Positions 51,414 to 54,555 of a stretch of DNA of 64,000 bases are shown piece after piece. The stretch is from Rickettsiales bacterium (GTDB lineage Bacteria; Pseudomonadota; Alphaproteobacteria; Rs-D84): assembly GCA_031262525.1 (NCBI GenBank), contig JAISHM010000019.1:6489-70488 (forward strand), given 5' to 3'. A program made the position numbers and the translations under genes. Position 1 is the first letter of the stretch; each line of letters opens with the position of its first letter. Under the pieces are notes generated by a model. It was not told the origin of the DNA. It saw nothing but the letters and a program-made list of their open reading frames with translations, and did not search any database.

Positions 51414-52532
51414 ATGAAAAAGTCAGGAATTTTTTCGTTTGCGATTGCTATGATTATGGGGCTGGGTGCGGCTGATGCTGCGTATCCGGCATATGGCGCG
51501 CAGACCCAGTATGTTCAGGTTGCGGGTTCATCGCAGTATTCATCGGCGGCAAATCGTTCGGCGGTACCACAAACCTATGCGGGGGCGAGTTCGACCAGTG
51601 TGGCGTCATCAAGTGCGAATCGGGTAACGGGTGCGTTGCCACGGGTCGGAACGGCGTCTACGACGGCGGGGCGTTCTTATTACCAGCCTGCGGATTATGA
51701 TAGATTGGCGGACAGCGGTCTGTATGTTGGTTTGTCGGTGGGTTATATGATGGGTGTGAATGGTGGAATGTTGGCGAATTATCGGGGTGAGTCTGATGGG
51801 TATTTTGCACCTGGGTCATTTGATACTTCGGATTATAAAACGGATACGATTTTGCCTTTGCAGTTGTCAATTGGCGCGGCGATAAACAGCGATGTTCGTG
51901 TTGATTTTTCTTATACTCGGTTCAGTGGGTTATCGTATGCGGATAGTGTAAAGACCAGTAATGGCGCGGAACTGATAGATGTCAGTGCGACTGGTGGCGC
52001 AATTTCCAGCACGGCGACAATGATAAATTTATATTATAATTTGGATTCTTTTACGGGGTATATGGCGGGTGGCTCGCTCAGTCCTTATGTTGGTGTTGGT
52101 TTGGGTATTTCTACGAATACGATTGCGGACTATTTGGTTTATGACCCATCGTTTTATAGTGAAAATGGTATAGTAGAGGGAAATACCTATCCGGCGGGTG
52201 TTTTGACGGCAATTTCGGATATTTATGCATATCATGCAGGCGGCACGACCGAACAATTATCCTATATGATAGAAGGTGGTGTCACAACCGAAATGGAAGG
52301 TGGAATAAAGTTGGACTTTTTTGTGCGGTATTCTGGAATGGGTAAGGTTCAATCGTCGGGTAGTGTTGTTGTGTCCCAGACAGATTGGCTGTCCACGGGT
52401 GGTGCAGCGATTGGTCAAGACGGGGCCGAGGTGCCGTCCGAATTTGACAGCGTGTTCCACTATACAAATTGGTATGAAAGTGGAAAATTATCAACCATAG
52501 ACGCGGGTGTTCGTATGCGAATACAGTTCTAG
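51414..52532 (+). CDS. outer-membrane beta-barrel protein
   Basis: Signal peptide '...GLGAADA'. Ser/Ala/Gly-rich linker, alternating strands, C-terminal '...GVRMRIQF'. Confidence 0.65.
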   Translation: MKKSGIFSFAIAMIMGLGAADAAYPAYGAQTQYVQVAGSSQYSSAANRSAVPQTYAGASSTSVASSSANRVTGALPRVGTASTTAGRSYYQPADYDRLADSGLYVGLSVGYMMGVNGGMLANYRGESDGYFAPGSFDTSDYKTDTILPLQLSIGAAINSDVRVDFSYTRFSGLSYADSVKTSNGAELIDVSATGGAISSTATMINLYYNLDSFTGYMAGGSLSPYVGVGLGISTNTIADYLVYDPSFYSENGIVEGNTYPAGVLTAISDIYAYHAGGTTEQLSYMIEGGVTTEMEGGIKLDFFVRYSGMGKVQSSGSVVVSQTDWLSTGGAAIGQDGAEVPSEFDSVFHYTNWYESGKLSTIDAGVRMRIQF

Positions 52533-52567
52533 TGAATAACGAATAATGGGAAAAATAGGAGAGAGTT

Positions 52568-52918
52568 ATGGCAGAAAGTATAGTTGCTGGTAAAAGTGAG
52601 CTTTTTGCTATACGTATTATAAATCTCTATAAATATCTTTTTGATAAGAAAAAAGAATTTATTTTATCAAAACAAATCTTGCGTTCTGGGACCAGTATTG
52701 GTGCAAATCTGGTTGAAGCTAAGTTTGCTATATCAAAAAAAGATTTTATTTGTAAGTTTCATATTTCAATAAAAGAGTGTTCTGAAACTTTGTATTGGCT
52801 TAGGTTATTAAAAGAAACTGGGTATTTATCACAAAATGAATTTGATAGTATTTATTCTGAATGTGAAGAAATACTTAAAATACTTGTAACATCCATAAAA
52901 ACGGCAAAGAAAAAATGA
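52568..52918 (+). CDS. four-helix-bundle protein (23S rRNA intervening-sequence protein / Avd family)
   Basis: 'QILRSGTSIGANLVEA', 'SKKDFICKFHISIKECSETLYWLRLL'. Visibly more AT-rich than its flanks. Confidence 0.8.
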   Translation: MAESIVAGKSELFAIRIINLYKYLFDKKKEFILSKQILRSGTSIGANLVEAKFAISKKDFICKFHISIKECSETLYWLRLLKETGYLSQNEFDSIYSECEEILKILVTSIKTAKKK

Positions 52919-54555
52919 AAACAAATTCTTTTACATCTTTTATTATTATCGCCCCGTTATTCGCTGTTAGCTATTCGCTATTCACTATTGATGCGGATGC
53001 GGCATTACGAACTGGTAATGCGGGGACGGGACGCGGTGTTTCTTATTCCGCGGACCAGTTGGGGGTGTATGATGCGGTCGCTCAACAAGCAGTTAATGAC
53101 CAAGAACGGATTGCGTCGGCGACAACCTCTGAGGAATTGGGATTACAAGTTCGCGTTGCGGATATGAATCTGGCGCGTGATATTGCATCGGGTGTGGAAT
53201 CTGTGTTGCCGATTGCGGAAAAATTAGACAAATGCGCGGCGATTTACCCAACGGGCGCGATGGCGTGGGATAATTCTAATATCGGGTTGCGTCCTGGGGT
53301 TGATGGTTGTGTGGCGGATGTGGAACTGCGGTATATAAATGGAACTGATGATATTGTTTTGGCGCGCGGGCGGCTGTCGGCGGGCGACTCTATAAAGTGC
53401 AATGTGTCCAGTTTTCCAGCAGATAGTTATACGATTGACGCGGGAAAAATAGAATTTCCAGCGGACAGGGAACCCACAATGGATGATGTTGAAAAACAAA
53501 TGAATGCCGAAATGCACAAGAACGAGGGTATAAAAGTTATAACGGGGACACTGCTGGGGGCGTTGGGTGGAAACTTTATCGGGCAAAATGACCCGGGAAA
53601 TTCTGCTATGTTGGGGACCAGCGCGGATAAAATGAAAAAAACGGCAATGGGTGCGTTGTTGATGGGGGGGGCGACATTGGCATCAACCAATGCAGGTAAG
53701 GTTGGTGGTGATGTAATTATGGGGGCGACCATTAACGCAATCGGCGGTGGAATGATGGGAAATTTATCGGGGATTGGTGGCTCTACATTGGTGATAAAAA
53801 AGTGTGATGGTGGGGATTGTTTGTATGGCGTTGTTGCGTCAGATGCGGAATTGCCCAGTAGGCGCGATGGTTTTTATAACAAGATGCAGGATACCCAATT
53901 TTCGTGTCAAAAAAATGGGAATGGTTATACGGGATGTACGCGTGCCGTGTTTTCCCAGTGGTCATTAAATGGAAAAACACAATATGACAAGGCCGCAGAT
54001 GTTGCGCGAGAAATGGAAAATGTTAATAGTGTTTATTGTTTAGACGGGGATAAGATGACTTTGTCGTCCAGTGGTGGGTGCGGTGGTGGGCAGATATTTT
54101 ATCTGTTGTCGGGGGTTCGTGTTTCCAACCAGCCGCAACCGGCGGTTATCAAAGAGTGGAAAAGCGATGTAAATACCAGCGATGAGTTTAATGAATTAAA
54201 GCGCAAAGGTGGCACATATCAAATCTATGGGCGTTATAATGACGGAACAATTGGCGATGAGTTGTCCAGTTTCAGTATCCAGAATTTTACACCTGTGGTG
54301 CAAACGGCCAGCAATGGCGACGGATTGGACTTTAATAACAGCGCGCGCACAGGGGCGACAATTACCGGTGCGGGTATCGGTGCGGGTTTGGGCGCACTGG
54401 GTGCGTATAAAGGTGCAACGACCGAAATGGATAATCGTTGGGTATCTGCGGTCCAAACATACAAAGATTCATTGACCAAGTTCTATTGTGGCACGGGCAG
54501 GCGGTATCTGTCGTCATACAATGAAATAACCATAATTCCAAATATGACAGAATAA
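52915..54555 (+). CDS. 546-aa secreted hypothetical protein with glycine-zipper segments
   Basis: Hydrophobic N-terminus. 'GTLLGALGGNFIG...GALLMGGATLA...GATINAIGGGMMGNLSGIGG' and a C-terminal 'GAGIGAGLGALGA'. Confidence 0.55.
   Translation: MKTNSFTSFIIIAPLFAVSYSLFTIDADAALRTGNAGTGRGVSYSADQLGVYDAVAQQAVNDQERIASATTSEELGLQVRVADMNLARDIASGVESVLPIAEKLDKCAAIYPTGAMAWDNSNIGLRPGVDGCVADVELRYINGTDDIVLARGRLSAGDSIKCNVSSFPADSYTIDAGKIEFPADREPTMDDVEKQMNAEMHKNEGIKVITGTLLGALGGNFIGQNDPGNSAMLGTSADKMKKTAMGALLMGGATLASTNAGKVGGDVIMGATINAIGGGMMGNLSGIGGSTLVIKKCDGGDCLYGVVASDAELPSRRDGFYNKMQDTQFSCQKNGNGYTGCTRAVFSQWSLNGKTQYDKAADVAREMENVNSVYCLDGDKMTLSSSGGCGGGQIFYLLSGVRVSNQPQPAVIKEWKSDVNTSDEFNELKRKGGTYQIYGRYNDGTIGDELSSFSIQNFTPVVQTASNGDGLDFNNSARTGATITGAGIGAGLGALGAYKGATTEMDNRWVSAVQTYKDSLTKFYCGTGRRYLSSYNEITIIPNMTE

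Follow-up and report, generated by a model that had tools for sequence, protein, structure and literature searches.

A four-helix-bundle gene enclosed by inverted heptamer arrays at a protein-coding junction of gut Alphaproteobacteria, and its likeness to 23S rRNA intervening sequences

The closest published system to the element described here is the open reading frame (ORF)-bearing intervening sequence (IVS) of 23S rRNA. In Coxiella burnetii, the IVS sits at helix 45, and RNase III cleaves it midway along a heptamer-containing stem of 28 bp (Warrier et al., 2016, PMC4990558). The same paper cites Ralph and McClelland (1993) for the ORF-bearing 23S IVS of Leptospira. A mobile-element origin has been proposed for 23S IVSs. 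Here we analyze a stretch of 64,000 nucleotides ("the window") from a Rickettsiales bacterium (assembly GCA_031262525.1, contig JAISHM010000019.1), in which a gene of the four-helix-bundle (4HB) family PF05635 lies between two inverted arrays of heptamers, and between a gene for an outer membrane protein (OMP) and a gene for a secreted protein. The host genome is a 790-kb metagenome-assembled genome (MAG) from a termite-gut metagenome, 86% complete. Its relatives are uncultured gut Alphaproteobacteria, many of them labelled Candidatus Enterousia.

Tandem arrays of 7-nt units are also known from other settings, for example as the STRR repeats of cyanobacteria. Inverted pairs of intergenic heptamer arrays occur in Xanthomonas (unit GGGAATC) and Nostoc (Rehm et al., 2015, PMC4692102), and tandem heptanucleotide elements in Geobacter metallireducens (PMC2700814). 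PF05635 genes have been noted in cas loci (PMC3936711). In a literature search that was incomplete, with most subscription journals outside its reach, no paper was found to connect PF05635 genes with inverted heptamer arrays other than in rRNA.

We give a somewhat better than even chance to the interpretation that the 116-aa 4HB gene is the cargo of an IVS-type cassette, that is, of a PF05635 gene held within two inverted heptamer arrays in an operon of OMP, 4HB and secreted-protein genes. We read this cassette as old, mostly vertically inherited and IVS-like, and as neither a recent insertion nor part of a diversity-generating retroelement (DGR). In the window, we see an eroded representative of an IVS-module variant that is widespread but unpublished.

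The three ORFs lie side by side on the + strand. The first (51414..52532) encodes an OMP-type protein of 372 aa without a Pfam match. It is a conserved upstream neighbour, with orthologues in 194 of the 201 genomes of our family sample, and its C-terminus, ...R(I/L)QF followed by the stop codon, marks the position of the junction. The 4HB gene (52568..52918) is preceded by a ribosome-binding site (RBS), AGGAGAGAG, read from the sequence at 52557..52565 (+). The third gene (52915..54555) encodes a secreted protein of 546 aa, also without a Pfam match, with the N-terminal signal peptide MKTNSFTSFIIIAPLFAVSYSLFTIDADA / ALRTGN, of which PLFAVSYSLFTI is the hydrophobic core. Its ATG overlaps the TGA of the 4HB gene as ATGA, and translation of the secreted protein is therefore probably coupled to that of the 4HB protein. 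The sole promoter-like site on the + strand ahead of the three genes is found at 51359..51388, 5' of the OMP gene (TTAGCA-18-TAAAAT, TG-extended; a consensus match only), and a consensus scan of the + strand revealed neither a promoter-like site within the cassette nor a terminator-like site separating the ORFs. With a single promoter-like site ahead of the OMP gene and no intervening terminator, it is plausible that all three genes share one transcript.

The first-pass annotation of this DNA had described a simple inverted 15-mer, AGTGAATAACGAATA at 52531-52545 and TATTCGCTATTCACT at 52972-52986. Both positions were confirmed, and the inverted repeat extends to 16 nt (52530-52545 / 52972-52987), with 15 of 16 positions complementary (94%) and one A-C mismatch; by eye, pairing reaches 19/21 if 14 nt are allowed to bulge out. 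The arms are not simple 15-mers, but eroded tandem heptamer arrays of three units on the left and five on the right. The left arm (52530..52550, +) reads TAGTGAA TAACGAA TAATGGG, its first TAG being the stop codon of the OMP gene (52530-52532), and has a lag-7 identity of 0.78. The pyrimidine-rich right arm (52953..52987, +) reads CCCGTTA TTCGCTG TTAGCTA TTCGCTA TTCACTA and matches itself at lag 7 in 22 of 28 positions. It is translated as PLFAVSYSLFTI, and its 16-nt pairing segment falls in codons 20-24 of the 546-aa ORF. The local duplication that had been noted in this region is real (52958-52971 / 52972-52985, a 14-nt imperfect tandem repeat with 79% identity), but it is part of the heptamer array and not a separate feature.

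Local alignment of the 150-nt upstream flank with the reverse complement of the downstream flank scored 27, compared to a mean of 15.6 and a maximum of 20 for shuffled sequences (z 5-6). In RNA folds of 52500-53020, the minimum free energy (MFE) and the centroid structures both pair the two arms. The arm match is modest when taken alone. We nevertheless hold it to be real, because both arms have period 7, because the same junction geometry is found in seven other genomes, and because arms surround 65 of the 76 family members described below. The window copy has a PF05635 gene between two inverted period-7 arrays, with co-directional neighbours on either side.

The assignment of the 116-aa ORF to the 4HB family, made originally from the sequence alone, was borne out by profile matches to PF05635 (E = 1.1e-27, 96.7 bits, cut-off 33.8) and TIGR02436 (E = 3.4e-32, 110.9 bits, cut-off 24). 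It also matches the solved uncharacterised protein of PDB entry 2RLD (E = 5.8e-34, residues 1-115). The RxxxSxxxNxxE motif, as defined for the PF05635 family in PMC3936711, is present as RSGTSIGANLVE. For 11 close or moderately diverged pairs of 4HB genes, dN/dS was 0.02-0.20, and the 4HB protein is therefore maintained by purifying selection.

The 4HB gene is markedly AT-rich, as already seen from the sequence. GC content is 0.26-0.29 over the ORF and 0.45-0.53 on either side (27% versus about 48%), and GC at third codon positions (GC3) is 0.16, compared to 0.44 and 0.43 in the neighbours. All 76 4HB genes collected from the family were AT-richer than their own flanks. AT-richness is therefore a property of the 4HB family and no sign of recent arrival; the co-divergence of gene and flank in one genus and the junction clade shared by three genera (below) also speak against such an arrival.

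In order to see how general this layout is, we collected 76 PF05635 loci from the 201 family genomes and, at each locus, compared the upstream flank by alignment with the reverse-complemented downstream flank. PF05635 genes are patchily distributed, occurring in 51 of the 201 genomes (genome sizes 0.7-1.1 Mb) at 1-12 copies each. A flanking inverted repeat was present at 65 of the 76 loci at z>=4, and at 58 at z>=6. The period was 7 in 56 of the 65 armed loci, and arms usually contained 3-9 units. The suggestion that this was an IVS-like module outside rRNA, with a gene in a terminal stem, thus extends to 65 of the 76 family genes, and relatives carry the gene with repeats rather than without them. 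The heptamer unit is lineage-specific (TAAGGCA, TAGAGCA, CAGTCCA, CGTAAGG, TTAGTCG and others). Heptamer similarity drops with protein divergence and is near background by about 60% protein identity. It is pairing and period that are conserved, not the heptamer sequence. The two arms also differ in strand polarity, with 199 stop triplets in left arms versus 80 in right arms, and the left arms are 69% purine in the 4HB subtype of the window. This polarity fits selection at the level of RNA or translation.

Comparison of orthologous loci, which had been proposed as a check, revealed both filled and empty states of the OMP/secreted-protein junction. In most relatives, the secreted-protein gene follows the OMP gene directly, with a spacer of 10-100 nt. 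Among roughly 100 genomes in which the junction state was scored, the junction was filled in 8, from five genera: G000, G064, G017, G054, G106, G198, G116 and G151 (G000 is our label for the window's own genome among the compared family genomes; other G and L numbers denote genomes and loci of relatives). At all filled junctions, the left arm begins at the OMP stop codon, whose three bases open the first unit. The start codon of the downstream gene either overlaps the stop codon of the 4HB gene or directly adjoins it, and the right arm encodes the hydrophobic core of a signal peptide (PLFAVSYSLFTI, LPFAFCLLPL, LLCLMPYALCL, YLLSIIYALLS, FCSLLFALCS). Complementarity scores of a cassette's own arms were 27-52, versus 10-27 for arms combined across genera, with the exception of the related G017/G054 pair (29-36). 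The arms differ among lineages, yet stay complementary within each, and it appears that pairing is maintained and not a particular sequence.

Intermediate states were also present. Three filled copies contain in-frame stops and are pseudogenes (G017, G064, G151). In G048, the 4HB gene is truncated at its 5' end, so that the last ~35 codons remain, and the right arm is intact. G056 and G019 have gene-less hairpins at the junction, which enclose the downstream start codon. Solo right arrays in signal-peptide codons were found in G022, G045, G015, L212 and L213. At the empty sites of genus g6, the OMP gene is followed by TAATGGG, which is the left arm of the window minus exactly 14 nt (two units). 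A GGAGAGAGA block precedes the secreted-protein gene at the empty sites of g6, g2 and g14 (Enterousia), and the same block precedes the 4HB gene in filled G064. At a further locus, L060 (G042:C1), the OMP gene is followed by a small ORF (VKTYYVYILFNKPDGTLYIGITNDLYRRIGEHK...) that replaces the secreted-protein gene and looks like a GIY-YIG nuclease domain.

Three lines of sequence comparison point to loss from a filled state. First, L213 is nested inside a filled Enterousia clade on the OMP tree (99) and has a solo array made of the units of its filled relatives. It has therefore lost the gene and the left arm, and has kept the right arm as a signal peptide. Second, g6, whose empty sites retain one unit of a left arm like that of the window as well as the GGAGAGAGA ribosome-binding block, is the sister genus to the window's genome on the OMP tree (100/100). 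Third, the junction copies of G054, G017 and four Enterousia genomes, from three genera in total, form one clade on the 4HB tree (96/89), and 4HB and OMP identities track each other within g14 (87 versus 80, and 96-98 versus 97-98). A 1:1 co-divergence of 4HB and OMP proteins between genera, considered at one stage, was withdrawn, as any two proteins of the subtype are 50-61% identical; the co-divergence within g14 stands. Taken together, these comparisons indicate a long vertical residence of the junction cassette with repeated loss, and not a recent hop.

In the window copy, the first unit of the left arm supplies the stop codon of the OMP gene, and the purine-rich RBS of the operon drives the 4HB gene. 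We propose that the arms pair in the operon RNA and close a loop of ~420 nt containing the 4HB cistron and the downstream start codon. The stem may be what selection maintains, as in rRNA intervening sequences. RNase III could act on this stem, or the stem could slow translation and decay and be opened by translating ribosomes. By analogy with the rRNA elements, RNase III processing of the stem is plausible, and a gene for RNase III is present in the genome.

The genome also contains an insert in its own 23S rRNA. This insert (G000:C2, L114 about 2328-2591, minus strand) is 264 nt long and has a terminal stem of about 32 bp with a fold z-score of -12.6. It lies near model position 230, which is presumably a helix-9-type site. 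ORF-less 23S intervening sequences are a kind known in Alphaproteobacteria, and the insert resembles them. We conclude that long stems in abundant transcripts are normal for this organism. Further 4HB copies, in 23S rDNA or elsewhere, did not turn up: the gene at 52568-52918 is the single PF05635 gene of the 790-kb genome, and the 23S insert contains neither an ORF nor heptamers.

What a cut would do depends on the position of the right arm. Where the right arm lies ahead of the RBS of the next gene, an IVS-style cut would free the 4HB message and leave the neighbouring cistrons whole. In the window, and at other signal-peptide sites, the right arm follows the downstream start codon, and a cut would therefore part this codon from the body of its gene. 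It had initially been suggested that the module could cleave or insulate the polycistronic mRNA; in the window copy a cut would, by the same analogy, decapitate the downstream mRNA rather than insulate it. At such sites we favour a stem that tunes coupled translation or decay and that ribosomes open. Because the window stem is eroded (16 bp, 3 versus 5 units) and because a cut would remove the start codon, the window copy probably acts, if at all, by modulating coupled translation, and not by excision. We think it somewhat more likely than not that the stem is a functional RNA element in the family. That it is still functional in the window copy has, in our estimate, a little less than an even chance, and we regard the eroded 16-bp stem as partly vestigial.

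Several observations weigh against this account. The stem of the window is short and imperfect, and its score of 27 is just above the 95th percentile (25) of the cross-locus null. The region was found in the source termite-gut DNA run only and in no RNA run, which leaves pairing and cleavage as predictions. The 4HB protein of the window is 56-59% identical to the other junction copies and up to 66% identical to copies elsewhere, against a subtype background with a median of 53% and a 90th percentile of 61%, and it falls outside the junction clade. In approximately unbiased (AU) tests, all junction copies as one clade gave p = 0.117 and 0.076, and G000 with G064 gave p = 0.165, so that monophyly is neither rejected nor demonstrated, and we make no claim of orthology between the window copy and the others. 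G000 and G064 have an RBS between arm and gene, which the G054/G017/g14 lineage does not. Either the junction has been occupied more than once, or the short 4HB protein has lost phylogenetic signal, and the window copy's own history could be one of separate arrival or replacement. L213 has a native-looking spacer and RBS at the former place of the gene, which simple deletion cannot explain; recombination with a cassette-free allele is one possibility. GC3 of the junction 4HB gene is below that of both neighbours in every genome (0.16-0.40 versus 0.43-0.71; in G054, 0.35 versus 0.71), even where the gene has co-diverged with its flank. Such a difference is not what one expects of a gene with a long residence, unless its AT-richness is selected. 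Possible explanations are a selective advantage of a weakly structured loop and horizontal gene replacement. Finally, claims of a protein function are weakened by the argument of Warrier et al. (2016, PMC4990558) that no IVS protein is produced in Coxiella.

The spacer and RBS of L213 deserve a separate remark. The locus is from a human-gut MAG (CAKQSE010000016.1), and the RBS upstream of its right arm reads GGGGAGAGAGA.

The link between right arms and signal peptides was not specific for the OMP junction. Of the 58 strongly armed cassettes, 26 have a right arm contained in a downstream ORF whose start codon comes ahead of the arm, and in about 17 of these 26 the translated arm forms the hydrophobic core of an N-terminal signal peptide of the typical kind. 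Such right-arm signal peptides occur at nine or more distinct loci, often together with an ATGA overlap. T-rich heptamers encode Leu, Phe, Ile, Ala, Cys, Ser and Tyr in any of the three frames, which suits a signal peptide.

A gene-less hairpin of the same geometry lies at the junction of leuS and lptE (G000:C4:73212-73338), 14 kb downstream of the cassette and about 2.7 kb past the right end of the window (it would be at window 66724-66850). Its left arm, ATAGCGAATAACTAAGAACGAATAAC, starts at the TAG stop codon of leuS, and the RBS and ATG for an LptE-like lipoprotein of 175 aa lie in its loop. The lipoprotein signal peptide is encoded by the right arm, (TATTCGC)x4, which has the same unit as the right arm of the cassette. 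These are the only two loci in G000 with three or more TATTCGC units. In G064, the leuS-lptE junction also carries a full gene-less hairpin, with the unit GGGCATA, which differs from the unit of the G064 cassette. A unit shared between cassette and leuS-lptE hairpin was therefore rejected as a general rule, as the units of G064 differ at the two sites.

The leuS-lptE junction varies among relatives. At L118, L124, L123, L137 and L134 (L062-type), which represent several genera, T-rich arrays of period 7 or 8 lie in the signal-peptide codons of lptE without a left arm (for example TATTTGC TATTTGT TCTTTGC TGTTTGC). G017 has a separate 4HB cassette, with the unit TAATCAG, between lptE and holA. 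L038 was examined as a case of the same junction and rejected, since it is on the opposite strand and 900 nt from lptE.

Period 7 is the commonest array period in G000, with 7 arrays versus 1-4 for each of periods 5, 6 and 8-11. Besides the cassette and the hairpin, there are five further period-7 arrays (C1:64913-64944, C13:92-127, C21:2252-2279, C16:6338-6366 and C18:36050-36137), with the units TAGGTCT, TTTGCAC (twice), GTCTGGG, and AGAGTTC plus GTAATTG. A partner arm or 4HB gene was not found for these five arrays. The two TTTGCAC arrays adjoin a common repeat (...CCACCCC...CACAGGAGRGRAACTT).

The hairpins bear on a different explanation of the arms, in which the heptamer arrays are binding sites, in RNA or DNA, of the 4HB protein, which forms a five-subunit ring in solved relatives. 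Through such binding, the 4HB protein would control both its own gene and the downstream gene coupled to it, and it would also bind gene-less hairpins of the same unit. This explanation is compatible with an IVS-type cassette, but we consider it rather unlikely. The usual 3-9 units per arm would go together with a pentamer: the 2RLD entry has 5 chains, and PMC4990558 cites a Xanthomonas homologue as a homopentamer. The sharing of TATTCGC units between the cassette and the same-geometry leuS-lptE hairpin, and by no other G000 locus, is in line with it, and purifying selection on the 4HB protein calls for a function. Across cassettes, protein and heptamer similarity correlate (rho -0.30, permutation p 0.002). 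However, such a correlation is expected from the shared descent of gene and arms, and by 60% protein identity the unit sequences are close to random. Only one 4HB gene is present in G000, next to five other types of heptamer array, and the arms of the G064 cassette do not share the unit of the leuS-lptE hairpin in that genome. On sequence grounds, arm binding by the 4HB protein is putative.

The two ideas may also be joined. Heptamer hairpins with or without a 4HB gene would then be a system tied to genes for exported proteins: the pyrimidine-rich arm would serve as signal-peptide codons, the purine-rich, stop-bearing arm would end the upstream cistron, and the stem would enclose RBS and start codon. 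The pentameric 4HB protein would bind stems of its cognate unit, in its own operon and at the leuS-lptE hairpin, and so set the translation of envelope proteins. We regard this combination as quite improbable. If it were true, the intervening sequences of rRNA would be cases in which this same module has come to lie in rRNA.

The reading of the cassette as long resident competes with one in which it is a mobile element at the DNA level, with the arms as terminal inverted repeats (TIRs), several independent insertions at the junction and a recent window copy. We judge this unlikely. The patchy, multi-copy distribution of 4HB genes agrees with it, as do the filled sites in separate clades of the OMP tree, with the sister genus of G000 mostly empty. 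The 4HB proteins of G000 and G064 are 59% identical and are not each other's closest relatives, as their identities with copies at other loci reach 66% and 70%. L072, at another locus, branches as the sister of the junction clade and has the same units. The RBS between arm and gene in G000 and G064 and the persistently low GC3 are further points in its favour. However, there is no transposase or recombinase in the cassette and the flanks of this genome, and the genome lacks a reverse transcriptase. A trans-acting enzyme would be compatible with this result. No target-site duplication is visible at the ends of the arms (CAGTTC before the left arm, TTGATG after the right). The features of a TIR transposon or miniature inverted-repeat transposable element (MITE) are missing, as the arms vary between copies, consist of tandem arrays rather than a conserved terminus and have no abutting direct repeat. 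The history of the junction speaks against insertion as well: the 4HB gene of g14 co-diverges with its flank, the intermediate stages of decay, like the nested loss in L213, suggest that the cassette was lost and not gained, and the empty sites of g6 keep TAATGGG, the last unit of a left arm like that of G000.

It is very improbable that the arms have no role, with a slippage-born right array tolerated in the signal peptide and a coincidental 15/16 match beside an ordinary small gene: these genomes do have T-rich period-7 arrays among signal-peptide codons with neither a partner arm nor a 4HB gene, and the arm score of the window is modestly above the null, but the same junction geometry recurs in seven other genomes with different, self-complementary units, arms are present in 65 of 76 family members, and MFE and centroid folds both pair the arms.

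The link to DGRs, proposed on the basis of the Avd accessory protein, was given up. No match to the reverse transcriptase family PF00078 was found in the whole 790-kb assembly (86% complete), and DGR template and variable repeats were not evident next to the 4HB gene, although no dedicated search for them was made. The accessory-protein interpretation is rejected for a genome without reverse transcriptase.

The operon is flanked on both sides by genes on the opposite strand. At window 50005-51312 (-) lies a gene for a 435-aa cysteine-rich protein with an N-terminal hydrophobic segment, and at window 54590-55204 (-) a gene for a 204-aa protein, both without a Pfam match. An Rfam scan of the window found a tRNA only, and no rRNA.

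What is new is a series, spanning five genera, in which one and the same junction is filled, decayed or empty, together with a cross-genus clade of junction copies. The new findings include evidence for long residence and for purifying selection, covariation of the arms at one orthologous site, and recurrent co-option of the right arm as a signal peptide. The locus brings together the questions of what proteins of the 23S-IVS family do and of why bacterial genomes have an excess of 7-base tandem repeats. The 4HB protein is kept by selection even in genomes of 0.7-1 Mb. Arm covariation, protein retention and signal-peptide co-option constrain models of how the cassette acts and persists.

Among known systems, the Avd protein of DGRs belongs to a homologous family of four-helix-bundle fold, with a pentameric nucleic-acid-binding relative, but only the fold is shared. 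The heptamer arrays of Xanthomonas, Nostoc and Geobacter and the STRR repeats are likewise tandem 7-nt arrays at gene boundaries, often as two close convergent arrays on opposite strands. PMC4692102 and PMC2700814 discuss roles in G-quadruplex formation or regulation and, in the text that was searched, make no link to PF05635 or S23p. The arrays described here enclose a PF05635 gene, and one of them lies in coding sequence.

The ORF-bearing 23S IVS is closest. IVS and cassette have in common an S23p/PF05635 gene inside a stem of terminal inverted repeats, tandem heptamers next to the start codon (GACAGAT in Coxiella), decay of the ORF in some lineages, and vertical inheritance. They differ in that the cassette lies between protein-coding cistrons and not in an rRNA helix (9, 25 or 45), and in that both of its arms are heptamer arrays, the right one being translated as part of the next protein. 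The window stem is weak beside the 28-bp stem of Coxiella. RNase III excision has been shown for the 23S IVS and is, by analogy, a prediction for the cassette. The IVS protein appears expendable in Coxiella, whereas the protein of the cassette is under purifying selection.

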